This document shows positions 29,625 to 56,488 of a stretch of DNA of 64,000 nucleotides, piece after piece; the first letter of the stretch is position 1, and each line of letters opens with the position of its first letter. Under the pieces are notes generated by a model. The model was not told where the DNA came from, searched no databases, and saw only the letters and a program-made list of their open reading frames with translations. Made by a program: the position numbers and the translations under genes. Source of the stretch: an uncultured Phycisphaerales bacterium (GTDB lineage: Bacteria; Planctomycetota; Phycisphaerae; Tepidisphaerales; Tepidisphaeraceae); NCBI GenBank assembly GCA_963758525.1, contig CAVWVQ010000002.1, forward strand, positions 128,001 through 192,000, given 5' to 3'.

Positions 29625-29650
29625 TGCGATAAACCCTGGAGGAAACGAAG

Positions 29651-30668: not shown

Positions 30669-30687
30669 GAACCGAGGGCCGTCAGTC

Positions 30688-31818: not shown

Positions 31819-31822
31819 TAAC

Positions 31823-38000: not shown

Positions 38001-38982
38001 CGAGCCGCCAAACGAGCGGCCCTTCTATCTCTGCACCACGGCTGTCTCGTTCGGACAATTCGCCGGCGTGGTCCAGGCGGCAGGCGCCTGGCAGCAGACC
38101 GCGGCGTTTTCGTGGGGCGTCGCGCCGGGCCAACCGGATCTGCGACGCGGTCCGCGCGTCTGGGAGTGGCTGGCAAAGCCGGCGCTGCAGATGACGACCC
38201 CCCTCCTCTGGCTGCATCCCGACGACGACAACGATTACGCGCCCCCGTTTCGCATCGACCGCTTCAACCGCACCGCGCTTTCAGATGATGTCGGCGGCAA
38301 TCCCACGCCCGACCATCCGATGCAGCAAATTCCAGCCGAAGCCGCACTCTATTATTCCGGGCTCTGCGGATGCCGCCTTCCCACCGCCGCCGAGTGGCGC
38401 GACGCATACGCGATCTTCGAGCGTACGGTCCCGCCGGAGCGATGGAATCTTCGCGATCAGACGTGGGACCAGCAGCGCCGATACGCCGCCGACAGTGCCT
38501 CCCCGACCGTGCGCTGGCCCGACGAAGGCATTTTTCGCCCCGAGGAAGTGACCATCGCGGCAGGGGCCGATGCCAAAGCGCGCCCCGAAAACGACGGAAC
38601 CTTGTTCTTCCGTCCCGTCAACGGCCCCGGCGGCGGGACTTTCCACTCTCTGATCGGCAACGTCGCCCAATTGATCTGTGAAGCGCCGGATCAATTTGAA
38701 GACCTCGCGGATAAATCGAGCGCCGCCGCCATTCGCGCCTTCCTCGCGCAATGGCCCAACTCCTTGTTTGTCATCGGCGGCTCCGCCCTGTCACCGCCGG
38801 ACGTTCCGCTGCAGTCGCCGCTCCCCGTCGTGCACACAGACGTCGGATATGCCGACGTCGGCCTTCGCCTCGCCTTCACCGCGCCCGCCCGATCGCTGTC
38901 GGAACGATTGGCATGGATGCTCGCCGGTCAGTCCTATCTCTGGGAAAAATCCTCCCCGACCACCGCGGCGGTGGCGCAGTGA
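35032..38982 (+). CDS. membrane protein: N-terminal pseudokinase, TM, long helical region, C-terminal FGE-sulfatase (SUMF1-like) domain
   Basis: Kinase fold (RYEVV, FVVK, HGNLKPSNVLL, LTDP, DLHALG); FGE motifs PFYL, HPM, RLPTAAEW, GNVAQ, GGS, VGLRLA. Confidence 0.8.
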   Translation: MPIFGRYEVVSELHAGTPASVFRAKLVIGRHAQFVVKLLQHEDLESQPLRQDVEVFLEQARAQKQAGADPLGNWASIHHFAKTPGGAFYISDLAPASVQTLIQLSVVPTSRELARLVAGIVRGLRTMREVLNRAHGNLKPSNVLLSSFKLDGASVRLTDPASNLIASQVGEAGDLHALGRLIFELIEHRPPLGDIDATVPSTPQWRQLGSDAEGWRQLCADLLAPQDEKSEGHLGELAALVNKLGRAKPGGSKRWMLRTATVFLVAGGVASAFDFQARRELFAARTQWIDPLAAEIAKPPTMKRFRDDPALCAVMLDVTAADDPAVAASNQLSDVRPWEILRVRSSLAAAERVGTDLSPAHWPVAARLRDAQQTLERSSWTQPAHFVAAALAQLKPGPGLDSAILNAIQLDAILQNQLPALTKSWADVEDNAGLLQKSNDVYLSSFATMLRKSAADALQLSATGFGGTDVLRTNNDLITRLLTVVRDGFPSGIDAPRFFAEVTSRIDYSHPQIADVKNWLQREPFYAKQDAQTAAAAKELRIALRRALDQIARLHPDAGDRAEVEAQRKLIEHDLDLFEHRHFTSHDMADGTFVTQRTGIDSQIESLIGHVHRVDPTPWVASLPTLATRSDVINAYWEDWKHVLRTSTGEMARRNDLFQTFRRQTEALRKTLTGLDADFPAVPSQLAGAFAASAASRRESELGKLLAAIDAAAPQAVLPGQKSAADSYRQWCDNLVALGHDFPIRAELLTFADNPDEPWKHTKADFWNDTAVQHLVAADVKRLANLRAISKLTRPDLIDAATESTVPEITFAAWQLLGEASISPAWPSQAGELETERDMRDKLASMIAGLKDPKAKGLVGSALANQGIARWRRFVQSATSEAMLQHAIELKRSFGPDADLFSGLSAAGRFNIALYLGRQQVHDSDDHSTATLIAALKHSAQDLPDQKPVQRLLARLARLDTKERFADQNPGDRFTLAVPGANPPFVFQRVEPPNERPFYLCTTAVSFGQFAGVVQAAGAWQQTAAFSWGVAPGQPDLRRGPRVWEWLAKPALQMTTPLLWLHPDDDNDYAPPFRIDRFNRTALSDDVGGNPTPDHPMQQIPAEAALYYSGLCGCRLPTAAEWRDAYAIFERTVPPERWNLRDQTWDQQRRYAADSASPTVRWPDEGIFRPEEVTIAAGADAKARPENDGTLFFRPVNGPGGGTFHSLIGNVAQLICEAPDQFEDLADKSSAAAIRAFLAQWPNSLFVIGGSALSPPDVPLQSPLPVVHTDVGYADVGLRLAFTAPARSLSERLAWMLAGQSYLWEKSSPTTAAVAQ

Positions 38983-39011
38983 AAACTTCAGTTCCATCAG
39001 GACGCAGTCGC

Positions 39012-39144
39012 CCTCTCTTTCCCCCTCCCCTGGTACTCCGGGGGAGGGCCGGGGTGGGGGCGGGTGACGTTGCGAATGCCGCGCCTTTTTCGCGGTGCTT
39101 CCACACTAACCCTTCCCCGGGGTACCAGCGGAGGGGAAAAGAGG
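39012..39144. repeat. GC-rich inverted repeat element (CCCTCCCC...GGGGAGGG type)
   Basis: ccctcccctggtactccgggggaggg ... cccttccccggggtaccagcggagggg, imperfect inverted arms between co-oriented genes. Confidence 0.7.
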
Positions 39145-39155
39145 CGATCCGAAAT

Positions 39156-40046
39156 TTGCGTCCGCTGTGTCTGCTCTTTTTGACGGCAGCCGCATTCTGC
39201 CTGCTCGGTGGCTGCGTCTCGGCCCCCGCGCCAGCACAACAATTCGTCGCCCAGGCCAAGCGTCTGCACGACGATGCCCTGGCCCAGACGGTGATCCCCG
39301 ATCGCGATCTGGAGGATTACATCCAGCAGATCGGCCAGCGGATTATCGCCGCCGCCCACGAAGCGGCGCCGGACAAAACCGCCAATCCATTCTTTGCCGA
39401 TGTGCAGTTTCACCTTGTCGACTCCCCGGTGCCAAACGTCTTCACGACCGGCGGCAAGCACATCTATGTGTATGCCGGCCTCCTGCAGTTCTGCCAGAAC
39501 GAAGAGGAGCTGGCCACGGCCATGTCGCAGGCGTATGCCCACCTGGTCAACCTCGATATCGAAAATACTGGCATGAGGCCCGACGATCAGCGACCGCTGC
39601 GCGCCGACGTCTGGCAGTTCGTCATCAACCCCTACAGCAGCCAGCAGGATCTGTCGGCCGACCAACTGGCATTTCAATTCTTCGACAAAGCCGGCTGGGA
39701 CGGGACGAAATTCGAGAATCTGTTCCAGCGCGTCAACGACACCTATCACGCGCCCCCCGAGCCCAACCGATCGTCCCTGGCCGACCGAGCGGCCCATGCC
39801 CACGCATTGAGTCAAACCGCGACGCGCGCCAACCGCAGGCCTCCCGTTGCCGACCGCCGGACGTTCGCCCTGCTCAAACGCCAGGCCGCCGCCTTGATCA
39901 AGAAGCAGGCCCCGCCGCCGGAAGACGAGCTATTCCTGCTGGCAATGCCCAACCTGATTCTCTCCCACGATCTCCCCGAACAGCAGGCCGCACAAGAAAG
40001 CCTGCGTCCGCCGCCGCCAGCCGCAGTGCAGTTGGAACCGAACTGA
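39156..40046 (+). CDS. M48 (BepA-like) peptidase-fold lipoprotein, predicted inactive
   Basis: Lipobox LGGC; M48 scaffold (PNVF..GGKHIYVYAGLL...EEELA) but HExxH replaced by QAYAH. Confidence 0.7.
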   Translation: MRPLCLLFLTAAAFCLLGGCVSAPAPAQQFVAQAKRLHDDALAQTVIPDRDLEDYIQQIGQRIIAAAHEAAPDKTANPFFADVQFHLVDSPVPNVFTTGGKHIYVYAGLLQFCQNEEELATAMSQAYAHLVNLDIENTGMRPDDQRPLRADVWQFVINPYSSQQDLSADQLAFQFFDKAGWDGTKFENLFQRVNDTYHAPPEPNRSSLADRAAHAHALSQTATRANRRPPVADRRTFALLKRQAAALIKKQAPPPEDELFLLAMPNLILSHDLPEQQAAQESLRPPPPAAVQLEPN

Positions 40047-40298: not shown

Positions 40299-40326
40299 TG
40301 TCCTGATTTGGGGTGTTGACGGATTA
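40299..40326 (+). promoter_or_regulatory. putative ECF-dependent promoter (autoregulatory)
   Basis: TGTCCTGATTT-N11-GGATTA ending 33 nt upstream of the ECF gene; same motif and spacing at 42787-42814. Confidence 0.75.
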
Positions 40327-40359
40327 GATCAGGCCATTCTTCGTTTTTGCCGGATAGCG

Positions 40360-40893
40360 ATGCAGTCATCCGATCAAATGTTCGTTCGCGTTCTGACCGG
40401 CCAACGGGTTCAGTTGATGGCCTTTATCTGGTCGATCGTGCGCGCGCCCGAACTGGTCGAGGACGTGTATCAGGATGTCTGCCTGGTGGCGATGGAGAAG
40501 CGACCCATCACCGACACCGACGAAGACCTGATGCGCTGGCTCCGCGCGGTTGCGCGAAATAAGGCGCTGCAGGCCCTGGAGCGACGTCAACGAAATCCCC
40601 GGACGATGCAGCCGGAGCTTTTGGAATTGATGGACGAGCAGTGGCAGGAGCACGACGGCTCATCCAACGGGCCGGAGCTTGAGCATCTCCAATCATGCCT
40701 GACAAAGCTCACGCCGTACGCGCAGCAGGTGGTGAATCTGCGCTATGGCCAAGGCCTGACGACCCAGAAGGTGGCCGACGCGCTGCAACGCAAGGTTGAA
40801 GCGGTCTACAAGGCGCTGGTGCGGATTCATAACGCACTGGAGGAATGCGTGCGACGACAGATCGGCGCTCAGGAGCGAGGATCGAATGCCTGA
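40360..40893 (+). CDS. ECF RNA polymerase sigma factor (PVC type)
   Basis: Region 2 (VEDVYQDV...WLRAVARNK) and region 4 (CLTKL...LRYGQGL...VYKALVRI...LEECV). Confidence 0.92.
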   Translation: MQSSDQMFVRVLTGQRVQLMAFIWSIVRAPELVEDVYQDVCLVAMEKRPITDTDEDLMRWLRAVARNKALQALERRQRNPRTMQPELLELMDEQWQEHDGSSNGPELEHLQSCLTKLTPYAQQVVNLRYGQGLTTQKVADALQRKVEAVYKALVRIHNALEECVRRQIGAQERGSNA

Positions 40894-42707
40894 AAACACG
40901 CCCACCGGGGCCGGCATGAGCGACGAAGATTTTGTGCTGCTGGTGCTGCGGCACCTGGACGATTCTCTGGACGAAACCGGCACATCCGCTCTCCACGCGG
41001 AATTGCTGCGGGATGCCGGGCGTCGCCGGGAATTTGTCTCATTGCACCTTCGCTCGGTGAAGCTGGCTGAATTGCTTCGGCCGCAGTTGTTTGACGATCC
41101 GGAGAATTCCGCGCCGGCAACGTTGGACGATGCACAGATCCTTCCCGCGTTGAACGCTCTCGATCGTGGAGACGATGGGAACGCGGAGCGCAAGGACTCG
41201 GCCGGCATGCTCACCGGCCTCACGGCGCCAAGACTACCCGACGATAGCGGTTCGGACTCGACGATAAAGGCGGCAGGGCCGATCGAGGATCAAGATGCGG
41301 CACATGCGTGGCGGTGGCCTTGGAGAGTTACGAAGTGGCGCGCCGGTGCGCTCGGCTGGGCTGCTGCCGCGACAGTGGTGCTGGCGTCCGCGATATCCCT
41401 CGTCGTGATCCTGCATCCGGGCGCCCATCCTGAGCCGCTGGTCATGGGCGCGTCCCTGGATGCAGTATGGGCCGATCCGCGGTCGGTCGCGGCTGCGGGA
41501 AGCCTCGTCGAAACCGGGGTTTCGCAATCGCTCGAATCCGGCTGCGCCGAGCTGACCGCCTCGAACGGCCTGGTGGTTGTCATTCAGGGACCGGCGACGT
41601 TCACCGTTGTAAAGGCCGGGGTTGTCGCTCTCTCATCCGGCAGGCTCACGGCAAGCGTCCCAAAACCAGCGCGCGGATTCACTGTGAACACTCCGGTTGC
41701 ACGCGTCATCGACCTCGGTACCGAGTTCGGCGTGTCCGTCGATCCATCGGGTGAAACGCAGGTCCAGACTTTTCGCGGCACGGTGTCGCTTTCGTCATCC
41801 ACGAGCCCCCCTTCCGTGCCCGCCGGCTTGATTACCGCCGGGGTCGCGCGACGCGTCAGTTCGACGGGTGACATCACGGACGTCCCGGCCAACACCACGG
41901 CGTTTGTACGGCCGCAGCAGTTCGACGACTGGAACGCGATGCCGCACGAAACGTCATTCGACCGGTGGAAGGCCTATAGCGCACGGCTTCGCAGCGATCC
42001 CGATCTGGTCGCGTACTACACATTCGACAGGAGCGAAAGCGATCCGGAGCGCTTGATCAATCTCGCGGCATCCGGGCCAGCCCTCAATGGCTTCTTGAGA
42101 GGAACGGATCGGATCCATGAACGCCCGCTATGGACCACCGGTCGCTGGCCGGAAAAGGGCGCGTTGGCCTTTACTCCCAACTCGCATGAGCGCGTCGAGA
42201 TCGAATCCCCCGTCGGTGGTCCCCTGGACTTCTCGCGCAACGCGCAGACAGCAGTCCCGTTCACCATCTGCGTTTGGCTGCGCAGAACAACAGCACCCGG
42301 TTCACTCGTCGATTTTTCTGAAGGGTGGTGGTTCGGAACAGTTCGGACTGGAACTGATTGCGGACGGATCCATCGAGGGGTCGGTAGGAAAGGTCGGGGT
42401 CGGAGATCGCCGGAGTCCCGCTTCCAAGATCACAAACAAGTGGCAACTGGTGAGCCTGAATTACGACCCGGACCACGGCAACCTCGCGTTGTATGTCAAT
42501 GGCGTTCAGGTGGCCCAAAACCCCAACGCGTCCAGAACGCTACCGCGTTCCGAGTGGCCGCTGGCCATCGGGGACCGCGAATTTCGGGTGAAAATCGCGT
42601 CCTATCTCCCGCCCATGGCGGGGCAGATTGATGAGGTGGCGGTCTTCCGCAGGGCATTTTCAGCCGAGCAGGTGAAGGAGATGTACGAGGCAGAAAAGCC
42701 GGATTAA
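40886..42707 (+). CDS. FecR-like anti-sigma factor with C-terminal LamG (concanavalin-like) domain; frameshift near 42305
   Basis: N-terminal anti-sigma helices, TM, FecR core (GFTVNTPVARVIDLGTEFGVSV), LamG (LVAYYTFD...LYVNG...GQIDEVAVFRRA); overlaps the sigma gene stop. Confidence 0.85.
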
Positions 42708-42786
42708 ACCTTGCTTTTGCTCAAAGGTAGGTATAGTCGAGTTACTCACCGGATCATTATCATTGTGAAGAAATTTCAGAAATTGG

Positions 42787-42814
42787 TGTCCTGATTTTGA
42801 TTTCGGATGGATTA
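42787..42814 (+). promoter_or_regulatory. second copy of the putative ECF promoter
   Basis: TGTCCTGATTT-N11-GGATTA in the AT-rich gap upstream of the PEP-CTERM gene. Confidence 0.75.
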
Positions 42815-42914
42815 ACGATGTGAGGCGACATGACGCAAGTCGTGCCGAGCTGGTTCGAGCCGCGGTCGTCAACGTAAGTATTGAAGAGGGATGGATTTAT
42901 CCGGAGGAGAAGTG

Positions 42915-45900
42915 ATGGCGGTCGATGTGAAGCGATATACTCGCAATGACACAATGAACGTTGGCGCCGCTGAGAAGCGCGCTCGGGCGCGGCATCGGAA
43001 GTTGCGTCTGGCGGCGGCTGCGGCGCTTCCCGTGCTCTCCGGCCTGATGGGTCGCGCCGCGCATGCCGCCAGTGGCACCTGGCTGGATACGGGAGCGACC
43101 AGCGCCAACTGGAGCGATACCACGAACTGGGCCAGCGGGACGATTCCAGGCGCCACCACCGGCACAACCGACACATCGATCGCCACGTTCAATTCGGCCG
43201 TCGGCAGCGAGGGGCTGAGCACGACGCCGATCGTCATTGATTCCGGACGAAACGCAGCTGGCATCAGCTTCGACACAGCCGCCGGCAGCTACTTCATCGG
43301 CGCCACCGGCGGCAATTCCCTCCTGCTGACCAGCGGCGGCTCCATCCAGATTCTTTCCACGCTCACGGCCACCAACGCCGTGGAAACGATCAACGCGCCG
43401 CTCGTCATCGAAGGCGCCGCCGGCACCGACACTTTCGCCAACAACAGCGCCAACGGCACGGGCGCGGCGCGGGCACGCTGGATTTCGGCGGCCAAATCAA
43501 CGGCGGCACGGCGGGCGCAACGGTCTTGACGCTGAGCGGTTCGAACACCAACCTCAACACGATCAGCGGCAATATCATCAACGGCACCGCCACAAGCCTC
43601 GCGATAGCGAAGAGCGGTGCGGGTACTTGGGTTCTTGGCGGCGCGGATAGTTATTCAGGGGCGACCAGCCTCACTGCAGGCACGCTGATTTATTCGGGGA
43701 CCTCCTCGATGAGCAGCAATTCGACGATCACGCAGTCCTCCAACACAACGCTGGAGCTTCTGAGCAACAGCAGTGGCACCTTCACCCCCTCCGCCTCCAC
43801 CGCCAACTCCACCACAACCGGCTATATCCAAACCGGTGGCGGGCCATTTAATTTCATCGCGGGCGATGTGAGCGGCAGCAATACGGGCAACACACTGGTT
43901 CTTGCGAATATGGGCCAGTTTGGTCCAGCCGGCACATCGCCGACTTTCAATTTTGCCGTCAACAACAGCGATACCCTTCAGCTTGGTTCCGGAAGCTCGG
44001 GAACAGGCTTGTTGAACGTTTTCAATAACACGACGATCAACTCCACTGTCGCGGGCGGCACGCTGTCGATTCCGGGCGGGATCACCATCAATTACCCCCA
44101 GGCTTATACGCTTACTTTCGGCGGTGCGGGAAATATCACTTCTGGTCCGATTCTCCGCGATGGCAATATCAACGTAAACGTCACCGTTGCCGGGCCGGGC
44201 ACCTTGACGGTCACCGGAACGAGCAACTTATACAACGGCACAATAACGCTGCAAGGCGGCGGCATCTTGCAGATTGGTAATGGGACCACCGGCAATCTCA
44301 GCAGCACCGCCAACCCCCTCACCTTCAGCGGCACGGGCACGATCAACTTTGACGAGCCGGCCTCCACCAGCCAGTTTATGGCCGCGCTGACCCCCAGCGC
44401 GGGTGCCGACACGGTCGAGTCCACTTATCCCGGCAGCGGCACGAGCACCCTGACGTTCTCCAACGTGGTCGCCCGCACCGCCGGCGCGTCCCTCAACTTT
44501 GTCAGCAACGGGGGCACCAATGGAACCAGCAACAAGATCGTTCTGACGCAATTCGGGGGTTCCGCGCCGACGACGGCGGTGCTCCTCGGCAACGGCTACT
44601 TTTACAACGGCAGCAGTTACGCGGCAGTGAATGCCACCGGCGGCTACGTCCGCGCTTATGGCTCGGGCGACACGGGTTATGCAACCGCCTCCGGTTCCAA
44701 CGGGATCGCCGACTCGTCGACCAGCAACGTCGCCCTCACCGGCAACGTCACGGCTCAGAATAGCGCCTCGGTCAACACCCTCAACATGGGAGCATACACC
44801 CTCGCGCTCGCCTCCAGTCAGACCTTCCAGACCAACGGCATTTTGGTGTCGGGAAATGGCTCGGCCACCATCAGCGGCGGCACCGGGCTGGAAGCGACAA
44901 CCAGCGGTGGCGAATTGGTCATCAATACCAATCTGTCCAGCGACGTTCTGAACATCAGCACGCCAATTCTGAACAACAGCACCAGCTCGCTGACTGTGAC
45001 CGGTCTGGGCACCCTGACGCTTTCCGCCGCCGGCAACAACTACGCGGGAGCGACCACGGTTGACTCGGGTACGCTGAACTTGACCGGAACCCTCACGGGA
45101 GGCACAGTCGTTACAGTCAATGCGGGTACCTTTCAGTGGAATTCGGGCGCCACCCTGTCAACCTCCGCTGTCGCGCTCAATAACGGGGGGACTCTGAGCC
45201 TGTTATCGGATTCAACTGCAACTTTCACTCCGTCGGGCTTTTACCTCAATAGTGGCTCCTACACCATCGCGGTGAACCAAGTGAGCAGCGCGGGGGCTGG
45301 CAAAACGCTCTCAATTGCCAACGAGGCAAGTAACGGCACCACCTCTACTTCTATCAACGTCAGCAGCACCTCCGGAGACACCTTGGCATTTAGTACTGCT
45401 TTCCAACTCAACGGTGTCGGAGCCGGTGCGGGTACTACAACCTTTAACCTCAACAACGCGAACGTGATTCTGAACGGATTGAGCAACACTTCTTCCGCAA
45501 CTGACGGAGGAATGGTCGTTCAGAGTACAACCGGTAACAGCTTGACGATCAACGGCACCCTCTCGACGGCCTCCAACCGGTTCTTCGGCATCACGCTCAA
45601 CAGCGGCACTTTGATTGACAACATCAGCGGGTACGCGGGTAGCAGTACTAATCGCGGATTCTATGCCAATCTCAATGGCGGCACGTGGGACTTAAACAAC
45701 AATCAGGCAGTCGGCGGCGCCACCAATGGGAACAAATTGAATATCGCGGGTGGCACGTTGGACAATACCAGCGGGTTAGCCGTGACGTTGGCGAACAATC
45801 CGCCCATCAACATCAGCGGCAGCTTCGCCTACAGCACCTCTGCCGGCACCAGCGCGAACAACTTGAACCTGGGCACGGGTGCGGTGGCATTGACCGCCAC

Positions 45901-46816
45901 TCCAACGATCACCACGGCTGGGGCTGGCACCTTGACCCTGGGCGGCGTCGTCAGTGGCAGCTATGGCCTGAACTTGACTGGCACGGGCGTGCTGGCGCTT
46001 ACCGGCGCAAATAGTTACTCGGGTGCGACCACCATCGCGGGCGGTACACTGCGAGTGAACAATACCAGCGGCTCATCTGGCACGGGCACCGGTGCTGTGA
46101 CGGTCAACGGGGGAATTCTCGGCGGCAGCGGCTTCATCGGCACGTCGGGTTCTTCCAACGGGGCGATCACCGTCAACAACGGCGGACTGATCGCCGCCGG
46201 CGCCAGCAGCTCCTCCACCGCCACCGGCACGCTGACCAGCCTGAGCACCAGCGGTGTCACGCTCAATGCCGGGTCCGGTTACAACTGGAAGATTCAGAAC
46301 GCCAGCGGCACGGCTGGTGGCACCGGGTGGGACCAAGTCGCTACCCAGGGTATTGCCTTCGGCACCGGTACGGCGCTGACATCCGCCAGCCCCTTTACGG
46401 TTTATATCCAGGGCAATCCCACGAACCTGGCTCCGGGGAGCACGGTCTTCGTGATTGCCACCGATCCCGTCGGCAACATCCCGATCAATGGGACGACTTA
46501 CTCGACGGCTTCGGCCCCCGTGGCGTTGACCGGCGCTGCGACCCCCGTGGCTCTTTCCAATCTGTTTGTCCTCAACACCTCCGGTTTCTCCGACACCAAC
46601 AGCCCGCGGGTTGGAGGAAGTTCATCGTTCACATTGGAACTCGTGACGGACAATTCTGGGGGACAGGACTTGGCGCTCGCTTACAACGCCGCGCCCGAGC
46701 CGGGCACGGCGATGCTGATGCTCGGCGGGGCGCTGCCCATGCTCATGGGTCGTCGCCGACGTCGGAACATATCCGGGAAGCCCGCTGCGATTCGCGACGA
46801 CTCGCTCCTTGCTTGA
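42915..46816 (+). CDS. large PEP-CTERM surface protein with autotransporter-associated beta-strand repeats; frameshift near 43467
   Basis: Signal peptide; G/T/S/N-rich repeats (KSGAGTWVLGGADSYSGAT, GTLTLSAAGNNYAGATTV, GVLALTGANSYSGATTI); C-terminal APEPGTAMLMLGGALPMLMGRRRRR. Confidence 0.88.
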
Positions 46817-47055
46817 CAGGTGAATTCAGAACCTGTTGAGCCGCGGTTTGACAACCCACGCCGAGTCTGAGGTACACCGAAGCCTCGGATCGAACGTCGG
46901 GCAACCCATTGAAGCATGCGATCACCCAGCAGGCGGTGATGCGGACGACGCATCGTCCAGTTGGAGGACACGCTGGGCCAGCGAACGGAATGCGTAAACG
47001 GCAGTTAGCTCAAGTCTAAAGGGCGAATGGTATTCGCGTTCCTCGAGTAGATACA

Positions 47056-48126
47056 ATGATGCATATGCGAAACCACAATTCGATGCATCGGACTGGGGGT
47101 TTTACCCTTGTCGAACTGCTGGTCGTCATCGGGATCATCGCCATTTTGGTTGCGCTGTTGCTTCCCGCCCTGGCCGGGGCCCGGGAACAGGCAAAGTACG
47201 TGCGGTGGCAGGCGTTCAGCCGCGACACGTCCATGGACCCGAACATCGCGGTCTACTTCAACCTGCAAAACGATCGCGGCGCCAACACCCTGACCAATAT
47301 GGCGGTAAACAACGCCGATGATCCCAGCTTCGTCCCGTCGCAATGCAATGCGCAGGCCCTGGATTGGGCGAATACAGCGGGTTTTCTACCGCTGGCGAAT
47401 CAGCCGTATGCACCGTCGCAGATCCAGGCGATGTGGGCAAGCGATGGGCGATTTAAGAACAAGCCGGCTTTGACCCTGTCAACCACGACGACACCGAACG
47501 CAATGTTTTACATCGGCCCCTTCGGCCGGGCCAACGGACGACTCGCCAAGCTGCTGATGAAGTCACAGCAGATCACGATCGTGTTCTGGGCCTATCTGCC
47601 GCCGTCGGCGCAGAGCGCCAGTACCAAGCAAACGTTCCTGAGGTGGGCCGGAACAAACCAGAACTATCGCGTCATGTCAATCGACTTCCCCTGGGGCGGC
47701 GATGTCCAGTGGCAGAACGGCATCGGAACTTCCGGTGCCTTTGGGGCGGGCGCGGGTGTGCCGTATTCCTCGACCGTTGCCAACCAATGGAACCTTTGGT
47801 GTTTCACCTGTGACCGGAATACCGGTCTCATGAAGGTCTACCTGAACGCGCAGTTGGTCCCGCTCGCGAACGATGTCAATACCGTGCAGTGCGGTCGGTT
47901 CGTCGTTTTCGATGAAAATGCGCCCTACTACAAAGATACCGGCAACTTCATGTTCGGGAATACACCGGGGGGCCCTGAGGATACGATCGCCGTCGATGAA
48001 CTGGCAGTGTTCGATGCGGATCTATCACCGCAGGACGTCCAGATCGTCGCCGGAAACCCGGTCACGGTTCCCGGAGTGCCCGCGGTGCGGTTCCTGCAGA
48101 TGTACGACATGGGGAACCCCAATTAG
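47056..48126 (+). CDS. prepilin-type N-terminal cleavage/methylation protein with LamG-like C-terminal domain
   Basis: [27 protein letters not shown]-terminal QWNLWCFT...KVYLN...[12 protein letters not shown]. Confidence 0.85.
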
Positions 48127-48163
48127 GCTTCCCCCGGCGCAGCACGCCATCACCGGAGTTCGA

Positions 48164-48649
48164 ATGGGTGTTCGAGAAACACTAAACCGGCAATCCAAGG
48201 CGATTGGAATTGCGTCGGCGATGATGATCGCTCTCTGCCTGGCGTTCGCCGTGACGCAGTACAAGCATGGCGGACGTCCGTCGCTCCCGCATTTCGCTGA
48301 CAAGGCCTATTACACGACTGATGATGGCGCGACATTCTTTACGGACTCTGTCAATCTGATCGCCCCTTTTGACCATCTGGTGCGCCAAGCCGTGCGGGCG
48401 CATATGTTCACGTGTGATTCGGGCAAACACCGGTGGATCGGGTATCTCGAAAAATATTCGGATGCGGACCTGAAGCGGTTTGACCCCTCCAATTCCCAGA
48501 TGGATTTCTCCCCGCCGATTCCGCTCGTGCGGCGGCCAGGTGCGGGGGACTGGGTGCCAGAATCCTCCAAGGACGCGATGTTCATCATGGATCCAAAGTG
48601 CCCTGACGGAGAGGGTGCCGGGCCCCCCCAGCCGGTGTTGCCTGATTGA
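48164..48649 (+). CDS. small membrane-anchored hypothetical protein, paralog of 50026-50505
   Basis: GGAG RBS, N-terminal TM; AYYTTDDG...PFDH...GYL...VRRPG...W-x-P...PDG...VLP. Confidence 0.75.
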   Translation: MGVRETLNRQSKAIGIASAMMIALCLAFAVTQYKHGGRPSLPHFADKAYYTTDDGATFFTDSVNLIAPFDHLVRQAVRAHMFTCDSGKHRWIGYLEKYSDADLKRFDPSNSQMDFSPPIPLVRRPGAGDWVPESSKDAMFIMDPKCPDGEGAGPPQPVLPD

Positions 48650-48799
48650 TCCACATGGAATATCCAGTCGCCTCCAGACCCTTCGCCGAAGTATGGCTGA
48701 CCCGTGAATACACTTCGGGAATTGGATCGAGCATTACTTCCTGAACTGGAGCGATTCGGATATCCAGGGGAACACTCCGTGGTGAATATTGCAGTCAAT

Positions 48800-48837
48800 T
48801 GACGCAAAATCGCATGGATTCTGCGATTTAATGCGGT
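48800..48837. promoter_or_regulatory. conserved dyad motif, copy 1
   Basis: TGACGCAAAATCGCATG is an exact match to 50581-50597; internal inverted repeat AAATCGCA/TGCGATTT. Confidence 0.55.
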
Positions 48838-48948
48838 TACCATTCAGGCAACGATCTGGCACCTCGAACGAGTCTCGCAGGCGGAATCAAGTGCAGCTCC
48901 AGCCACTTGGCATGACGCCTGTGCGCGGCGGCGCCTGGAGGCACTGAC

Positions 48949-49991
48949 ATGTCCACGTCTCATCAGCGGAAACGTCCGGCATTCTCGCTTGTAGAACTGC
49001 TTGTGGTCATTGGCATCATTGCGGTGCTTATTGCGCTGTTGCTGCCCTCGCTGGGCCGCGCGCGGTATGAGGCGCGTCGGGTCGCGTGCATGAGCAATCT
49101 TCGCCAGATCGGCCAGGCATTCATGATGTATGCGAGCGAAAATAAAGGTGCATTCCCCCGCACCTATTATTTGACGAACTTCACCTGGACGCACTCGCCC
49201 GACAGCTTTTGCGGGCTGCGCGGTTCTCGAACCCCACGTCTGCCGCTCCGTTTCTGAATCCTTCGGTGTGGAATTATGACACCGTGCTGCCGCCGTGGAA
49301 CACCGACCATCGTCCCGGCGACAACGACGTCACCGCGGCGTTGTTCCTGCTGGTGCGGCAATATGGATTGCCGGCGCAGCTCTTTGTTTGTCCCGGGCGC
49401 GACGATCCATTTTATCCCGACGATTTCAAAACTCTGGGCGTGGCTGGTGCGTCGACCGACCCGATGAAGCGCTCGAACTTCTCATCGCCTTACAACCTCG
49501 GGTATAGCATGCATGTTCCTTATCCGCCGCCCAATGCGTTTGCCCTTGGGTTTCGCTGGGGCCTGACCGCCAAACCTGGCTTCGCAATTCTGGCGGATCT
49601 GAATCCGGGCGAGCGATTCGTCGACAGTTGCGTGGTCACCCACAGCAACTTTTACATATTAGACGGCCCGACAACGCCCACCGACCCGCCGGATTTGCAA
49701 AGAATGGCCAATAGCAGAAATCACGAAAAACGCGGTCAGAACGTTCTATATGCCGATGGGCATTGCGAGTGGTCCCCGACGGCGTTCGCCGGATACAACC
49801 AGGATAATATTTATACATTGGCCGGACCGATGGGTGTGACGAGTGGGAAGACTAATCAATGGACGACCGGCGCACAGTGCTTTTACCTCGGTGCCTTCTT
49901 CATCAATAACCCCGACGACAGCATCATGCAGCCCAACGAGGGAGCTACTGTTTCCAGTGTGATGAGTGCCAGCGGATTGGGCATCAACTGA
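48949..49991 (+). CDS. prepilin-type / DUF1559-like protein with H-X9-DG motif; frameshift near 49222
   Basis: [25 protein letters not shown]-terminal NHEKRGQNVLYADGH. Confidence 0.88.
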
Positions 49992-50025
49992 GCTCACGCC
50001 ATTTTTCCCTGAAGATCGTCCGCGC

Positions 50026-50505
50026 ATGAACTTCCGTGAATTGGTAAACCGTCGCCCGAAGCTTGCAGCGGCAAGCATCATCGCGATCGCTGTTCTTGCC
50101 ATCGGCTTCTCTTTCCAGAGCAGCCGCGGCCCCAAGTTGTCCGGGCCGATCACGCAGGCGTTCTTCAGTGATGACGATGGCAAGAGCTGGTTCGCCGAAG
50201 ATATAAACAAGCCGTTTCCATTCGATCACAACGGACGGCAGGCATACCGGGCATACGTTTTTCGCTGCCAATCCGGCGATCCGTTTGTTGGTTACCTGGC
50301 AAGCTTCAGCGATGCCGGCGCGCCGAAAGGTACGACGGCTGCCCCAACCCGCAGCGAACAATTTGGCCCGCAGAAGATCCCAGTCATGCAGGTGAAGAAA
50401 CCGGGAGAGTCTAATTGGATTCCCATAGATAGCCCCCAGGGGGAGCTCATCATTGACGTGAAGGGCCCCGACGGATCGAGGCCGCTGGCGGTCTTGCCCG
50501 AGTAA
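50026..50505 (+). CDS. small membrane-anchored hypothetical protein, paralog of 48164-48649
   Basis: N-terminal TM; AFFSDDDG...PFDH...GYL...VKKPG...W-x-P...PDG...VLP. Confidence 0.75.
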   Translation: MNFRELVNRRPKLAAASIIAIAVLAIGFSFQSSRGPKLSGPITQAFFSDDDGKSWFAEDINKPFPFDHNGRQAYRAYVFRCQSGDPFVGYLASFSDAGAPKGTTAAPTRSEQFGPQKIPVMQVKKPGESNWIPIDSPQGELIIDVKGPDGSRPLAVLPE

Positions 50506-50580
50506 AAGCGATTGCTCCTCACGGCTGGAGCGCTGGCGGTCCTGCCGTCGCACGTACCCCGGAATAATTTCGCAGCACTG

Positions 50581-50619
50581 TGACGCAAAATCGCATGAAC
50601 GGCTACGCTATTTTGCGGT
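50581..50619. promoter_or_regulatory. conserved dyad motif, copy 2
   Basis: TGACGCAAAATCGCATG...GCTATTTTGCGGT; CGCAAAATCGC/GCTATTTTGCG is an inverted repeat with 1 mismatch. Confidence 0.55.
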
Positions 50620-50697
50620 AGTTTCTCTGTCGGAGCTGGAGCTGTCCGGATACCATTTGCGGCGCAGCGGAGATTTCAAGGCATTGGAGGAATCGTC

Positions 50698-51801
50698 ATG
50701 TCGAATCGCGTGAGAGTGGCAATCGTCGGTCTTGGCTTCGGAGCTGAGTTCATCCCGATTTTCCAGAACCATCCGGACGCGGAGATGTATGCCATCTGCC
50801 AGCGGAATCCGGAGACGCTGGAGAAGATCGGTGAAGTATTCGGCGTGAAGCGGCGTTACACGAAATATGAGGACGTCCTGAAGGATCCGAATGTCGACGC
50901 GGTCCATATCAACACGCCGATTCCGGATCACGCGGCGCAGAGCATCGCCGCGCTCAAGGCCGGAAAGCATGTTGCCTGCACGGTGCCGATGGCGACGACG
51001 GTTGACGAGTGCCGGGCGATTGTGGCGGAGGCGCGCAAGGCGAAGAAGAACTACATGATGATGGAGACGGTGGTCTTCTCGCGTGAATTTCTCTACGTGC
51101 GCGAGCTGTATGAGAAAGGGGAGCTGGGCCGGCTGCAGTTCATGCGTGGGAGCCATCAGCAGGAAATGGCCGGTTGGCCCGGGTATTGGGAAGGGCTGCC
51201 GCCGATGTACTACGCGACGCACTGCGTCGGCCCGCTGCTGGCGCTGGCGGATAAGCTGGCGGCTTCGGTGACGTGTCTTGGATCGGGACGCATCGCCGAG
51301 AATCTTGCCAAAAAGTACGGTTCCCCGTTCGCGGTGGAGAGCGCTCAGATTCGGCTGAAGGGTTCGGACGTGGGGTGCGAGGTCACGCGGTCGCTCTTCG
51401 AGACGGCGCGGCAGTATCGCGAAAGCTTCGACATCTACTGTGATAAAGCGAGCTTCGAGGCGCCGCTCGTCGAGCATGAGCCGCCGGTTCTGCATCGCGG
51501 GGAAACCCCCGAGAAGGTGACGGTGCCGGATTATGCGCATCGTCTGCCGGCAGGGATACAGCGATATACGACCAAGGGCGTCTACGACAGTGATGAGAAC
51601 GTGCATCTGTCGTTCAAGCAGGGAAGCGGACACGGCGGATCGCATCCGCACCTGGTGCATGAGTTTCTGCGCAGCATCGTTGAGAAGCGCAAGCCGTATG
51701 TGGATGAGGTGAAGGCAGCCAACTGGACGAGCACCGGAATCTGTGCGCACGAGTCGGCAATGTCGGGCGGCAAACTGGTGGCGATTCCGGATTTTGCGTA
51801 G
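50698..51801 (+). CDS. Gfo/Idh/MocA-family oxidoreductase
   Basis: VAIVGLGFG, VDAVHINTP, AGKHVACTVP, GHGGSHPHL motifs. Confidence 0.9.
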   Translation: MSNRVRVAIVGLGFGAEFIPIFQNHPDAEMYAICQRNPETLEKIGEVFGVKRRYTKYEDVLKDPNVDAVHINTPIPDHAAQSIAALKAGKHVACTVPMATTVDECRAIVAEARKAKKNYMMMETVVFSREFLYVRELYEKGELGRLQFMRGSHQQEMAGWPGYWEGLPPMYYATHCVGPLLALADKLAASVTCLGSGRIAENLAKKYGSPFAVESAQIRLKGSDVGCEVTRSLFETARQYRESFDIYCDKASFEAPLVEHEPPVLHRGETPEKVTVPDYAHRLPAGIQRYTTKGVYDSDENVHLSFKQGSGHGGSHPHLVHEFLRSIVEKRKPYVDEVKAANWTSTGICAHESAMSGGKLVAIPDFA

Positions 51802-51839
51802 CGACGATGACGCATTGAGCGAGGATGGAGAGCGCTTCA

Positions 51840-51953
51840 CCCGGTTAGCCGCGACGCGCAGCGGAGCGCGTATTCCGGGCATCCTGAGCTTGCAAGTCCG
51901 AGTTGCGAAACACGCTGTTGGACGCGCTCCGCTGCGCGTCGCGGCTAACCGGG
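51840..51953. repeat. 32-bp perfect inverted repeat element (REPIN/MITE-like)
   Basis: CCCGGTTAGCCGCGACGCGCAGCGGAGCGCGT (51840-51871) and its reverse complement (51922-51953). Confidence 0.9.
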
Positions 51954-52043
51954 GTGAACGCAACCGCGTGCAGATTTATCTGCGTTCGGTTACGACGGAA
52001 TCGAAGTGACGGCGGACCATTTACTCTTCGCGAAGGAGTCTGT

Positions 52044-55000
52044 GTGACAACGAGGTTTCAGGGTTGGCTGCCGCTGGCGGCATGTGCAGTTGCGATGATG
52101 GCCTTCCTGTGCCTTGGGGCAACGGACAGCGTCGGCGGCGCCGGCAATCATCCGGTGCGGCGGGTTAAGGTCCTGTTCCTCGGCGACGAGGGACACCACG
52201 TTCCCCGCGAGCGCGCCCGGCAACTGATCCCCGTCGCGTCGCGCAACGGCATCGACATCAGCTACACCGAAGACATCGGCGATCTGAATCCGGCTACGCT
52301 GAATATGTACGACTGCCTGATGATCTACGCCAACATCGAGAGGATTTCGCCGGAGCACGAAAAGGCGCTGCTGGATTACGTCGAAGGGGGCCATGGGCTG
52401 GTCGCGCTGCACTGCGCGTCCTACTGCTTCCTCAATTCGCCAAAGTACATCGCGCTGGTCGGGGCCGAATTTTCGCATCACAGCACCGGCGTGTTTCGCA
52501 CGAAGATCATTGCGCCGGATCATCCGATCATGAAGGGATTCACCGGCTTTGAGAGCTGGGACGAAACCTACGTTCATACGAAGCACAACACGGAGAATCG
52601 CACGGTGCTGGAGATGCGCGACACTGAGCCGTACACGTGGGTGCGGACGCAGGGAAAAGGGCGGGTTTTCTACACCGCCTGGGGACATGACGAGCGGACG
52701 TGGGGCAATCCCGGATTCGTGGATCTGGTGGAGCGCGGGACTCGCTGGGCGGCCGGCGATTGGGCGATGGGGCCCCAGCCGCAGCTCAAAGCATTTGAAT
52801 ATGCCGAGGCGCAGGTCCCCCGCTATCTGCAGGCCGCCAAGGGACACAACCAGGCCAGGCAGAACCAGATGCAGCTTCCGCTGGCGGAGGAAGAGTCGAT
52901 CAAGCACATGGTGGTGCCGCAGGGATTTTCGGTGAAGGTCTTCGCATCCGATCCGCTGATTTACAAGCCGATCTGCATGGCATGGGACGAGCGCGGGCGG
53001 CTGTGGGTTAGCGAAACCGTCGATTATCCAAATCAGCTCCAGGATCCCGGCAAAGGTCATGACCGGATCATCATCATCGAAGACTCGACCGGTAAGGGCG
53101 TTGCCGACAAGGTCACGGTGTTTGCCGACAAGCTGAGCATCCCAACGAGCCTCTGCTTTGCCAACGGCGGCGTGATCGTGGCGCAGGCGCCGGACATTCT
53201 GTTCCTCAAGAGCAGCAAAGGGGATGACACAGCCGACGTGAAGCAGGTGCTCTTCAGCGGCTTCGGCACGCGCGACACGCACGCGGAGTGCAGCAATCTT
53301 CGCTACGGGTTTGACGGGTGGATTTACGGGACCGTTGGTTACAGCGGATTTGAAGGAACCGTCGGGGGACAGAAGCTGCACTTCGGCGAAGGGTTCTTCC
53401 GCTTCAAGCCGGACGGCAGCAAGCTGGAATTCCTCGGCTCGACGAACAACAACACCTGGGGGCTGGGCATCAGCGAGGATAATCACATCTTCGCGTCGAC
53501 CGCCAATGGCAATCCAAGCTTCGACCTGGCGATTCCCAATCGCTACTACGAGCAGGCCGAGAATCTCAGCGCCCACGGCACGCAGACCATCGCGGACACG
53601 CCGGCGTTCTATCCCATGACGGACAAGATCCGCCAGGTCGATAATTTCGCGCTTACACCGCCGGCGCGGGAAGCGATCTCTACACCGCGCGGAGTTTCCC
53701 GCAGGAATATTGGAACCGCATCCAATTCGTCGCCGAGCCGACCGGGCATCTGCTCGGCAGGTTTATCCTGAAAAACGTCGGGAGCGCGGTTGTGGCCGTG
53801 AACGATTTCAATCTGCTGGCCAGCGACGATGAATGGACAGCCCCGATCGCGGGAGAAGTCGGGCCGGACGGCGCGGTCTGGATGATCGACTGGTACAACT
53901 ACATCGTTCAGCACAATCCGATCCCCGAAGGTTTCAAGGGCGGCAAGGGTGGCGCATATGAGACGGAGTTGCGCGATAAGTCGCACGGCCGCATCTACCG
54001 GATCGTCTGGGACGGGGCAGCTGCGCCAGGCAGATGGATCTGCGCGGCGCAACGGCAGCGCAGCTCGTGGAGGTGCTGAAGAACGACAATCTCTTTTGGC
54101 GCATGACCGCGCAGCGACTGTTGATCGAAAAAGGGGACAAGTCGATTGTGCCCGATCTGATCAAGCTGGCGGCAGACCAGAGCGTGGACGCGATCGGACT
54201 CAATACCGCCGCCATTCACGCACTCTGGTTGATGAAGATTCTCGGCGCGCTCGACGGAAGCAACGCCGAGGCGACTGCCGCGGCGGTCGCGGCGCTCAAG
54301 CACCCCTCGTCGGCGGTTCGTCGCAATGCGGCGCTGGTGCTCGCGCCGACGGCGGCCAACGCCGACGCAATTCTCGACGCAAAGCTGCTGGCGGACAAAG
54401 ACCCGCAGACGCGAAAGACCGCGCTGCTGGCGCTGGCGGAACTTCCGGCTTCAGACAATGTGGGCGCGGCAATTCTCGAGATCCTCTCGCGGAAGGAAAA
54501 CGCGGCCGACAAGTGGATCCCAGACGCGGCGACGATTGCGGCATGCAAGAATGACGCGGGGTTTCAGAAGGCGCTCTTTGCCAGCTATAAGGGATCGCCC
54601 GCCACGACGGCCCCTGCAACGCCGCAGAATTTAATCCCGAATGGTTCGTTCGAAGAGGTCGAGAACGGGCTGCCCAAAGGATGGCAGGCCCGCAATTATC
54701 AAGGCGCGCCCGCGACGCACGACGTGGTGTCGGATGCTCACGGGGGGCAACACGCTCTGCGCATTACCTCCGCCGGCGGATCAGATGCGAGTTGCTTCGT
54801 CGAAGCTCCCGTCGAACCGAACACCCAATACACGCTCTCCGCGTGGATCAAAACCGAGCAGTTGGTGCAAAGTTCCGGGCTTGGAGCTTTGCTCAATGTG
54901 CATGGCACCGAATTTAAGACCAAGGCTCTGCAGGGAACGCACGACTGGACAAAAGTTGAGACTACGTTCAACAGCGGCAAGCTCACCACAGTCAGCATCA

Positions 55001-56280
55001 ACTGTCTCTTCGGCGGATATGGCCTGGCCAAGGGAACGGCAATCTATGACGATGTGCAACTGATCAAGGGGTCGAGCGGCGCGCTGCCGGGCCTGGTGGG
55101 GTCGGTTGCGTCTGCCGTCATCGAGCACTACGCCCACCGCGCGCCGGTCGATTCGGTCGTCGCCACACTGACGGCAGTGCAAAAAGCCGACCCCCAGCTC
55201 GCAACCCTGGTGATCGACAGCCTGGCCGAGGGGTGGCCGCAGGGGACCGCGCCACAACTGAGCCCCGATGATCTCACATCGCTGCACTCTTTGATGTCGG
55301 TTTTGCCGCCAAATGATCGCACGCGGCTTGTGGCCCTGGCCGATCGTTGGGGGCGCGGCGACATCTTCGCCGCCGACGTGGAGCAGGTTCTCGAAGGGTT
55401 GCGGAAGGACGTGGCGGACACGTCGCTCGATCCAGGCAAACGTGTTGAGGCCGCCCGCAATCTGGTTGTGCTCGACGAGACGGACGCCGCGCCGAAATTC
55501 GTGCTCAAGCAGATTACGGCGCAGACTCCGCCGGACTTGCAGGAGGCACTGGTGCAGGCGGTGGGCAACAGCAAGGCCAACGTCGGTCCGCTGCTGACGG
55601 CCAACTGGACTCATTTCAGCCCGGGCGCGCAGCGCGCGGCCGTCGGACTTCTGCTCCGCAAGCCGCAGTGGACCCCCGCCCTGCTCGACGCGCTGGAAGC
55701 GCGCAAGATTCAGCTCGGCGACCTCAATCCGCAAGACCTGCAATTGCTCACGCAAAATCCCGATAAAGGCATCGCCGCCCGGGCGCAAAAGATCGAGAAA
55801 GACGCCGGCATGGCATCAAACGCCGATCGCCAGAAAGTCATCGACCAGTTCAGCGCCGCCACGGGAAAGACCGGTGATATCGCCGCCGGCAAAGCTATCT
55901 TCGAGAAAAACTGCATGGTCTGTCATACTTTTGAAGGAAGAGGCGCGCAGGTCGGCCCGGAGCTGACCGGCATCGGCACGCGCCCCAAGACCGAGCTGAT
56001 CATCAAGATTCTCGATCCCAACCGCTCCGTCGAAGGAACGTACAAGGCATGGACCGCCGAGACGAAAAACGGTGACACGTTCGTCGGCCGCCTCGCTTCC
56101 GAGAGCCTCACGTCGGTGGAGCTTGTGGATACCCAGGGCCATCACATTCTGCAGCGCAGCGATCTGAAGATTCTGCGGTCATCCAACAAGACGCTGATGC
56201 CCGAAGGATTTGAGTCGCTGGGCGTCGATGGCCTGGCCAATGTGATGGAGTACCTGCAGACGAGCAAGGTGAAGCATTGA
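52044..56280 (+). CDS. PVC-type heme c membrane-associated dehydrogenase (ThuA-like, beta-propeller, HEAT, CBM4/9-like and cytochrome c domains); frameshifts near 53650 and 54025
   Basis: GKGRVFYTAWGHD (ThuA), WDERGRLWVSETVDYPN, DWYN...HGRIYRI, NLIPNGSFEE (CBM), CMVCH...GPELTGIG, LMPEG; AAGGAG RBS. Confidence 0.88.
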
Positions 56281-56289
56281 GGGGGGCCG

Positions 56290-56488
56290 AAATCCGAACG
56301 ACGAAACCAGAATCCCCGAATCAAACCCGAATGACGAATGACTGAATGGCAAAACGCATGCATGCAAGCGACACAACGCGATGAGGATCGAGTCGCTGGG
56401 CTTCATTCGGTCATTCGTCATTCGGGCTTGATTCTGGTTTCTGATTTCGTCATTCGGATTTCACGCGCTGGTTTCGTCATTCGGATTT
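56290..56488. repeat. heptamer-based (CGAATGA/TCATTCG) long inverted repeat
   Basis: ~59-bp imperfect arms at 56290-56348 and 56404-56461, plus a partial extra arm at 56469-56488, between convergent genes. Confidence 0.85.

Follow-up and report, generated by a model that had tools for sequence, protein, structure and literature searches.

In this study, we analysed a locus of nine co-oriented genes in an uncultured bacterium of the Phycisphaerales (family Tepidisphaeraceae), which lies at positions 40299..56280 of a stretch of 64 000 nucleotides of contig CAVWVQ010000002.1 (assembly GCA_963758525.1). The whole stretch is referred to here as the window; coordinates are window positions and, unless stated otherwise, features lie on the plus strand. 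The source genome of the window measures 6.47 Mb and is 91% complete and 6% contaminated. Scans for open reading frames (ORFs) and domain families recovered all nine genes with the domains that an original prediction, made from the letters alone, had named for them. The locus opens with a copy of a bipartite motif, motif A (40299..40326), which is the predicted −35/−10 promoter of the locus's own sigma factor gene and would make that gene autoregulated. The gene (40360..40893) encodes an extracytoplasmic function (ECF) sigma factor of the TIGR02989 family, which we call ECF46-like based on a TIGR02989 match just over the cut-off (125.4 bits against 124.55) and on the architecture of its anti-sigma factor. 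The latter (40886..42707) has one transmembrane (TM) helix (residues 158–176), a FecR domain (PF04773) and a C-terminal lectin-like LamG domain (PF13385). A second copy of motif A (42787..42814), a predicted ECF promoter, precedes the gene for a PATR-repeat PEP-CTERM protein of about 1300 aa (42915..46816, the start being chosen by the ribosome-binding site in the sequence). This protein is rich in Gly, Thr, Ser and Asn, contains PF12951 and TIGR02601 repeats, ends in a PEP-CTERM tail (TIGR02595, 16.8 bits against a cut-off of 16) and has as its top Atlas match a PEP-CTERM/PATR cluster at 0.96.

Two pilin-partner gene pairs and two genes for redox-type proteins follow. Pilin 1 (47056..48126), which is intact and has 36 homologues at E≤1e-10, combines a prepilin helix (PF07963, N_methyl) with a LamG domain (PF13385, Laminin_G_3), and partner 1 (48164..48649) is a bitopic membrane protein with a small beta domain and no Pfam or NCBIfam family. 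Motif B (48800..48836), an imperfect dyad and predicted operator of a second regulator, stands before pilin 2 (48949..49991), a DUF1559-type pilin-like protein. This protein had been described as an H-X9-DG pilin; it has the prepilin motif (PF07963, 28 bits) followed by PF07596 (31.8 bits versus 23.3), but its spacing is H-X10-DG and the H-X9-DG family TIGR04294, with seven matches in the genome, does not match it, although its close homologues carry the JGI name of H-X9-DG proteins. Partner 2 (50026..50505) belongs to the same family as partner 1, to which it is 32% identical. A second copy of motif B (50581..50618) precedes the gene for a Gfo/Idh/MocA NAD(P) oxidoreductase, hereafter Gfo (50698..51801; PF01408), which has neither a signal peptide nor a TM helix. 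The last gene (52044..56280) encodes an exported, dehydrogenase-like protein of a type found in the Planctomycetes–Verrucomicrobia–Chlamydiae (PVC) group, composed of ThuA, DUF7133 propeller, HEAT, carbohydrate-binding module (CBM4/9; CBM_4_9) and cytochrome c parts.

The locus belongs to a set of 11 copies of one cassette in this genome. Genome-wide searches with profiles of the window's own proteins gave 29 partner matches in 20 clusters, as well as 67 pilin-like and 31 ECF matches and 11 FecR genes, and exactly 11 sigma factors score above the TIGR02989 cut-off, namely the 11 that lie about 1 kb before the 11 FecR genes. The core at these loci consists of an ECF46-type sigma factor, a FecR anti-sigma factor, a PATR/PEP-CTERM protein, a pilin-like protein and a partner. 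Each of the 11 FecR genes has a partner no more than 10 kb away (random mean 0.70), and 10 of them have a large PEP-CTERM gene in the same range (random mean 0.61); for 26/29 partners a pilin start is found at a distance of 1.5 kb or less (random mean 0.76). The C-terminal tails of the anti-sigma factors vary, with LamG in four, NPCBM in one and no assignment for the rest, and at other pilin-partner-PEP loci of the survey LacI, GntR or AraC-type regulators stand in place of the ECF sigma factor. The description of the present locus as self-contained does not hold, as it lacks a hydrolase, transporter, pilus motor and exosortase; nor is the locus unique, being one of 11 similar cassettes. In seven cassette regions we also noted a conserved D-2-hydroxyacid dehydrogenase gene, which in six of them directly follows the PEP-CTERM gene, mostly before the pilin (L001:7720-8964, L005:4303-5364, L015:8314-9399, L016:4241-5329, L017:7881-9005, L018:8328-9428 and L019:2605-3687; L and G numbers are our labels for loci and genomes). 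IS110 copies lie inside two sister cassettes (L002:2-1153 and L007:10984-12144), one between motif B and its pilin and the other between the anti-sigma factor and a pilin, and large DUF4159 proteins are encoded beside pilin-partner cassettes in several genomes (L007, L014, L132, L135, L140 and L141).

The regulatory signals are also specific to the locus. Motif A (TGTCC, 17 bases, GGATTA) has exactly two genome copies, one upstream of the sigma gene and one upstream of the PEP-CTERM gene, and the full form of motif B likewise has exactly two, before pilin 2 and Gfo; of five genomic copies of the motif B half-site two are those here, two stand before the closest paralogues of pilin 2 and one is in coding DNA. 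The idea that two shared motifs tie all nine genes together holds in that both are real and confined to the locus, but A covers only the sigma and PEP-CTERM genes and B only pilin 2 and Gfo. Motif A is absent before the dehydrogenase, and the region before Gfo has one poor match with two mismatches. A single regulator acting on both motifs was considered and rejected; pilin 2, partner 2, Gfo and the cytochrome c protein are best read as a second, separately controlled sub-module marked by motif B. When the upstream regions of ten sigma genes and 11 adjacent PEP-CTERM genes were compared (the eleventh sigma gene, which has no adjacent PEP-CTERM gene, being left out), a bipartite motif with at least 17 of 19 positions shared was found in 6/11 cognate and 0/108 non-cognate comparisons. 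Five of the six cognate patterns have two to three genome copies each, all in their own locus and one also before a pilin gene, and for the sixth we found a single exact copy, plus a near copy at the neighbouring sister locus; as the patterns were derived from these same copies, the independent observations are the absence elsewhere and the third copy. Judging from their sequence and placement, the motif pairs read as private, autoregulated ECF promoters, and the cognate pairs support the earlier suggestion that the PEP-CTERM gene is under ECF control. Scans for sigma-70 promoters and terminators gave matches at chance level. A short word is also shared between 42856, after the PEP-CTERM promoter, and 46838, before pilin 1, and has two genome copies; this pattern was made post hoc and its second copy lies inside a repeat-element region.

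The genome neighbourhoods of the cassettes point to glycans. In a manual count, we compared 20 regions around the 18 other clusters, with the core genes excluded, with 20 random regions. Glycoside hydrolase (GH), polysaccharide lyase (PL) or pectinesterase genes account for 31/140 ORFs beside cassettes (28/137 with split pieces merged) against 3/144 in the random regions (four if one deacetylase is included; Fisher p 6e-8), and are found in 13/20 cassette regions against 2/20 random regions. The families beside the cassettes are GH2, 28, 29, 35, 43, 78 and 115, PL4 and alginate-lyase-like proteins, and SSF, MFS and ABC sugar transporters flank some sister cassettes. The carbohydrate link drawn in the original prediction thus finds support in the sister cassettes. 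Gfo and the cytochrome c protein are swappable cargo and probably oxidize sugars or glycosides. The best solved relatives of Gfo are found at E 1e-16 to 1e-17, and no solved relative was found for the N-terminal piece of the dehydrogenase. A signal-like hydrophobic stretch is present in the dehydrogenase but not in Gfo, and the two proteins are predicted to occupy different compartments.

The partner family has 380 members at E≤1e-5, and none of the 120 members listed has a Pfam domain; its features are one TM helix, two mostly conserved cysteines and an S-x-D-x-G-x-T-W motif, which we take to be Asp-box-like. Partner 1 is modelled by AlphaFold2 with a pLDDT of 91. In fold searches with the whole chain, the best Foldseek match had an E of 0.3, VIA-align gave no match with Z≥5 and rows covering the TM helix only, and the Atlas matches were unnamed clusters below 0.9; as the globular part was not folded alone, this does not amount to a new fold. 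Nor were complexes resembling the pilin-partner pair found among these fold-search matches. The predicted complex of pilin 1 and partner 1 scored 0.63 against 0.02 for the best of three controls, a mark that 116/157 solved and 2/215 mismatched pairs reach, which is roughly valid for the alignments used here. Across runs, contact agreement was at least 77% and the pLDDT of the partner at least 77. In the model the TM helices pack together and the linker of the partner (residues 36–46) lies on the LamG domain. The prediction as a whole lends support to a binding of pilin 1 to partner 1. Pilin heads and partners also co-diverge (Mantel rho 0.28, p 0.0014, 19 pairs), and the suggested pairing of pilins with partners has in its favour gene adjacency, complex prediction and co-divergence. 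For pilin 2 we used an intact paralogue, the model of which reached a pLDDT of 92; 27/38 of its structural matches are pilins or pseudopilins, among them EpsG, PulG and GspK, and all of the top 20 are type IV pilins or pseudopilins (best match Z 4.9, rmsd 3.3, 118 residues aligned). Such matches would fit a pilin core into which a large segment is inserted.

An independent metagenome contig, L134, encodes the sigma factor, FecR-LamG anti-sigma factor, PATR/PEP-CTERM protein, pilin-LamG protein and partner in the same order at 26–57% identity, and its own sigma and PEP-CTERM genes share a motif at 19/19 positions. An assembly recorded as Verrucomicrobiae (L047) has a divergent PATR gene, a sigma factor, FecR and two pilins with three partners. 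Among metagenome loci with a pilin-LamG gene 9/15 have a partner, though several of these seem to stem from a single organism and do not count as independent cases. The refuting outcome named in the original prediction, a gene order that is not conserved in relatives, was observed in part: the order holds for the five core genes, as in L134, but Gfo and the dehydrogenase sit together without the cassette. Orthologues of Gfo occur in 5/30 relatives and in 41/300 genomes of the phylum, and in 5/29 phylum loci Gfo adjoins a dehydrogenase-like gene; over the short distance of 1.5 kb that was covered, none of these gave a match to a pilin, partner or sigma factor. In the same-genus genomes G001 and G002 the two genes are adjacent in reversed arrangement, with no sigma, PEP-CTERM or partner gene in 20 kb, and a nine-gene unit was rejected on this basis; Gfo and the dehydrogenase form a real but independent unit. 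The partner is present in 17/18 genomes of the same family, a figure that hinges on a single miss in an unpublished genome (G004), and in 1/12 others. Because it is widespread in the family but mostly an orphan, the partner appears to be old in the family and to have been recruited into cassettes in some lineages. At the orphan loci, found in many Tepidisphaeraceae (L032, L036, L039, L041, L043, L044, L046 and L050), its neighbours are of the hldE-like, DUF883, holin-X-like or Rce1-like kind; the hldE-like gene in G000 has no partner match beside it. With neighbours such as hldE-like, DUF883, Rce1-like and aminotransferase genes, the idea that the orphan partner belongs to a pilus-machinery operon was rejected. 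In two loci of relatives, proteins of the same locus share domains: LamG is found in both the anti-sigma factor and the PEP-CTERM protein (L064:7542-10977), and HpiC1-like domains are common to a pair of PEP-CTERM proteins and the large protein encoded near them (L068:4094-17918). The genome G025 has 35 FecR matches in sigma-FecR pairs; the four of its regions that were read (L075–L078) contain no pilin or PEP-CTERM gene, and near one of them lie a fucosidase and a 3-keto-disaccharide hydrolase.

Four of the nine genes are split by five frame breaks that the earlier description did not mention: the anti-sigma factor near 42240–42315, the PEP-CTERM protein near 43467 (a position set by comparison with a paralogue), pilin 2 near 49224–49236 and the dehydrogenase near 53643–53654 and 54041–54052. 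Every break is bridged by full-length homologues; the anti-sigma factor is a single ORF in a paralogue and in L134, and the dehydrogenase is one ORF in the same-genus genome G001. Elsewhere in the assembly 14 breaks were counted in 92 kb and 12/75 conserved genes are split, so that 2.2 breaks would be expected in the ~14.6 kb of the locus against the five seen (Poisson p 0.075). Based on this background rate, assembly errors are a likelier explanation than decay.

The surroundings of the locus in the window add some further observations. A repetitive extragenic palindrome (REP)-like element (51840..51953, no strand) between Gfo and the dehydrogenase belongs to a genome-wide family found at ~109 places and is not locus-specific; a second palindromic REP-like family is represented at 56287–56488, and each of the two families occurs at ~110 places. 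Upstream and co-oriented, at 35032–40046, lie genes for a protein of 1316 aa, kinase-like at its start and FGE-sulfatase-like at its end, and for an M48 peptidase-like lipoprotein, neither of which was seen at sister loci. Reading of the sequence alone further suggests two tandem band-7-like membrane proteins at 6045–9394 and, at 21958–34541, a long glycosyltransferase/asparagine-synthase-like cluster in which the reading frame seems to be broken at several points.

Machinery on which the cassettes might depend is encoded elsewhere in the genome, which has four secretins, 11 T2SSE-family matches, three PilT proteins over the cut-off, two prepilin peptidase matches and two exosortases. With the PEP-TM-basic tail found here and exosortases in the genome, both elements of a PEP-CTERM/exosortase system are present. 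In agreement with the original prediction, domain and genome searches found no SusC/D or TonB receptor within the locus. SusD (PF07980) and STN (PF07660) had no match in this 91% complete genome, the controls being positive in B. thetaiotaomicron and in four genomes, respectively. Seven TonB-dependent receptors are encoded on contigs other than that of the window, none of them closer than 29.7 kb to a FecR or partner gene.

We propose, with middling confidence, that the cassettes are glycan-induced capture modules that work on a shared type IV pilus machinery. The gene content and its repetition, the gene order of L134, the private motif pairs, the enrichment of glycan genes and the presence of pilus motors elsewhere in the genome are observations, whereas the folds and the binding of pilin to partner are predictions. 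We infer a course of events that runs from sugar sensing through surface display, pilin 1 read-through and pilus loading with the partner as chaperone to retraction through a secretin. A sugar fragment in the periplasm would bind the lectin-like domain of the anti-sigma factor, and the freed ECF46-like sigma factor would transcribe its own gene and the PEP-CTERM gene from locus-private promoters. The PEP-CTERM protein would be sorted to the surface, where it might serve as a particle-binding scaffold, and pilin 1 may be transcribed by read-through from the PEP-CTERM promoter across a repeat element. The partner could be an inner-membrane chaperone that holds the pilin until it is loaded as a substrate-specific capture tip on the shared type IV pilus, and retraction of this pilus through a secretin would then bring the glycan in.

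Several observations weigh against this proposal. The nine genes of the present copy include no glycoside hydrolase, lyase or transporter, and in the regions fetched 6/18 other clusters are without glycan-degrading genes (12/18 have them). The contrast of 31/140 with 3/144 ORFs was favoured by dropping core genes from the cassette set and nothing from the random set, and neighbouring regions are not independent. Motif A was absent from the scanned upstream regions of pilin 1 and pilin 2, and no shared motif was found in 5/11 cognate comparisons in this genome nor in L047, L064 and L068, where 13–15 of 19 positions agree. Of 19 FecR-centred regions of relatives five (in G001, G002 and G008) have a sigma factor, FecR, a short PEP-CTERM protein and a pilin without a partner, and the neighbours of these five are mostly DUF1549/1553/1501 proteins, not hydrolases; in addition, seven sigma-FecR pairs in the four G025 regions have no nearby pilin or PEP-CTERM gene. 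Most relatives hold one orphan partner beside housekeeping genes despite 15–77 prepilin matches. As for the predicted complex, both chains have TM helices and the controls included no non-cognate pilin, the placement of the linker on the LamG domain could mask a binding face, and co-duplication alone explains the co-divergence. The fold match of the pilin 2 paralogue, at Z 4.9, is below the level that the tool sets for a clear match, and its best Foldseek E was 0.76. Lastly, the seven TonB receptors and an OprB porin elsewhere in the genome could do the uptake; that pilins and partners replace SusC/D, as the original prediction has it, is therefore one possibility, and the same data would suit a role as secretion adaptors.

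The main rival, which we consider unlikely, holds that glycans induce the cassette in the same way but that pilins and partners are secretion adaptors, that is, cargo-specific pseudopilin tips of a type II-like system that exports the PEP-CTERM protein and the enzymes encoded nearby, with sugars entering by ordinary porins or transporters. A pilin gene directly follows 12/19 large PEP-CTERM genes within 6 kb, and since the PEP-CTERM proteins have no barrel of their own they would need an export route. EpsG, PulG and GspK among the fold matches fit this view, as do the TonB receptors and OprB encoded elsewhere. Secretion systems do not need retraction motors, however, and the three PilT proteins speak for a capacity to retract; moreover, the head of pilin 1 is lectin-like rather than a plain pseudopilin head, and many pilin-partner pairs have no PEP-CTERM gene nearby. 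On the side of secretion, the available text on a verrucomicrobial alginate-induced cluster reports a pulG-like pseudopilin that has 67 homologues, and the type II system is interpreted there as a means of exporting enzymes (PMC13274419). A second rival, that the PEP-CTERM adhesin and lectin-tipped pili form a substrate-matched attachment coat on particles with no import, seems to us quite improbable. PATR repeats mark beta helices of the passenger or adhesin type, PEP-CTERM proteins have been linked to surfaces and biofilm (PMC1569441, as far as its accessible text goes) and the pili of the Akkermansia locus MUL2 are taken as attachment devices in the portion available of PMC13174399; attachment alone would leave unexplained, however, why about half of the 51–67 pilin-like genes of the genome have distinct partners and regulators, and why SSF, MFS and ABC transporters flank several cassettes. 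That the cassettes are a decaying, lineage-specific accumulation of duplicated and shuffled pieces, this copy being a partly dead chimera without joint function, appears very unlikely, for although 28 partner copies here against 0–5 in 30 relatives, the excess of frame breaks, the inserted IS110 elements, truncated partner and fragments of enzymes at sister loci, and the missing hydrolase would fit, conserved genes elsewhere in the assembly are split too, both motif pairs are intact and L134 retains the five-gene order and promoter logic.

Many components of the capture modules that we propose have been described separately. Bacteroidota polysaccharide utilization loci (PULs) combine an ECF/anti-sigma pair with SusC/D, and FecIRA is a system of cell-surface signalling. 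Like these, the cassette comes as many paralogous loci, each with its own sigma-FecR pair, surface proteins and interchangeable glycan-degrading cargo. The present locus has no SusC-like transporter, SusD-like lipoprotein or glycan-degrading enzyme, and of FecIRA it has the ECF sigma factor with adjacent FecR anti-sigma factor but not the STN-domain receptor; the gene slot of the receptor is occupied by the PEP-CTERM protein together with the pilin-partner pairs, and a lectin-like domain is part of the anti-sigma factor itself. The cassette works like a PUL yet cannot be counted as one. Planctomycete ECF groups are said to have been defined by Jogler in 2012 and Wiegand in 2020, whose accounts may describe this neighbourhood. 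In the available text on ECF46 (Casas-Pastor et al., 2021; PMC7826278), the gene at +1 from the sigma gene encodes a FecR anti-sigma factor that has one TM helix and Laminin_G_3, as here; periplasmic carbohydrate sensing is proposed, rhamnosidases occur in the neighbourhood, and no group-wide promoter was found, which was taken as a possible lack of autoregulation. That description, as far as available, lists no PEP-CTERM, pilin or partner genes, whereas here private promoters appear to precede the sigma and PEP-CTERM genes, and such promoters would explain why ECF46 shows no common promoter motif. Mutually distinct sigma-promoter pairs with sugar-sensing anti-sigma factors would also be useful as orthogonal switches.

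The Verru_Chthon system (TIGR02596/02598/02599/02600) is a four-gene cassette in which pilin-like genes are repeated beside very large PEP-CTERM proteins with autotransporter-type repeats, and to our knowledge it includes no sigma/anti-sigma pair or partner. By this description its proteins are different, the pilins here scoring 20.3 and 24.2 bits on TIGR02596 (cut-off 70); TIGR02600 (Verru_Chthon protein A) had no match in the genome, its control matching nowhere either. The 3-keto-glycoside pathways of ThuAB and BT2157-2159, as outlined in the accessible text of PMC8121099, likewise have a Gfo/Idh/MocA enzyme beside a ThuA domain, and 3-keto-disaccharide hydrolase genes lie near some sister loci; the Gfo of the window, however, is far below the cut-offs of the BT2158 and BT2159 profiles (38 against 750 and 37 against 650 bits), so that orthology fails, and it is predicted to be in a different compartment from the ThuA protein.

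The import of glycans without SusC/D by planctomycetes and verrucomicrobia, which are major polysaccharide degraders, is an open question to which these cassettes speak. A review states, in the part available, that the players in planctomycete glycan import are unknown (PMC12673574), and the ‘fishing rod’ hypothesis, in which pili attach to polysaccharide and draw it into the periplasm, leaves them equally unnamed in the accessible text (PMC12078418, PMC12673574). DUF1559/SBP_bac_10 pilin-like proteins have been reported, as far as the available text goes, as expanded, prepilin-bearing and scattered over planctomycete genomes (PMC8567305), and the sorting of PEP-CTERM proteins was known beforehand (PMC1569441, PMC4960237, in the portions available). 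In those portions the fishing-rod and DUF1559 accounts give neither a regulator or cassette nor a partner family, and they make no connection to specific sets of enzymes, whereas here candidate genes can be named. Our literature search, which left most subscription papers outside its reach, found no account of the cassette, the partner family or the private promoters, nor of a union of ECF46 pairs, pilin-like proteins, PEP-CTERM sorting and the fishing rod, each of which was known. The interest lies more in the cassette family than in this copy. The cassettes provide candidate parts, the partner family as a marker for such loci and a predicted protein pair suited to in vitro tests.

Precedents are the Akkermansia MUL2 locus (PMC13174399) and the Verruconatronum alginate cluster (PMC13274419), in which, as the available texts describe them, pilin-type proteins of PVC bacteria also take part in glycan foraging without SusC/D. 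MUL2 is, on the same basis, a single machinery locus, whereas the loci described here would provide variable tips and partners for machinery encoded elsewhere. It is possible, though we advance this only tentatively, that they represent a third design for glycan uptake in PVC bacteria beside SusC/D and ABC systems, in which dozens of interchangeable lectin-tipped pilins, each held by a membrane chaperone not described before, would share one retractile pilus that draws polysaccharide through a secretin, and a private ECF46 circuit would sense the imported fragment and induce its own tip, scaffold and enzymes.

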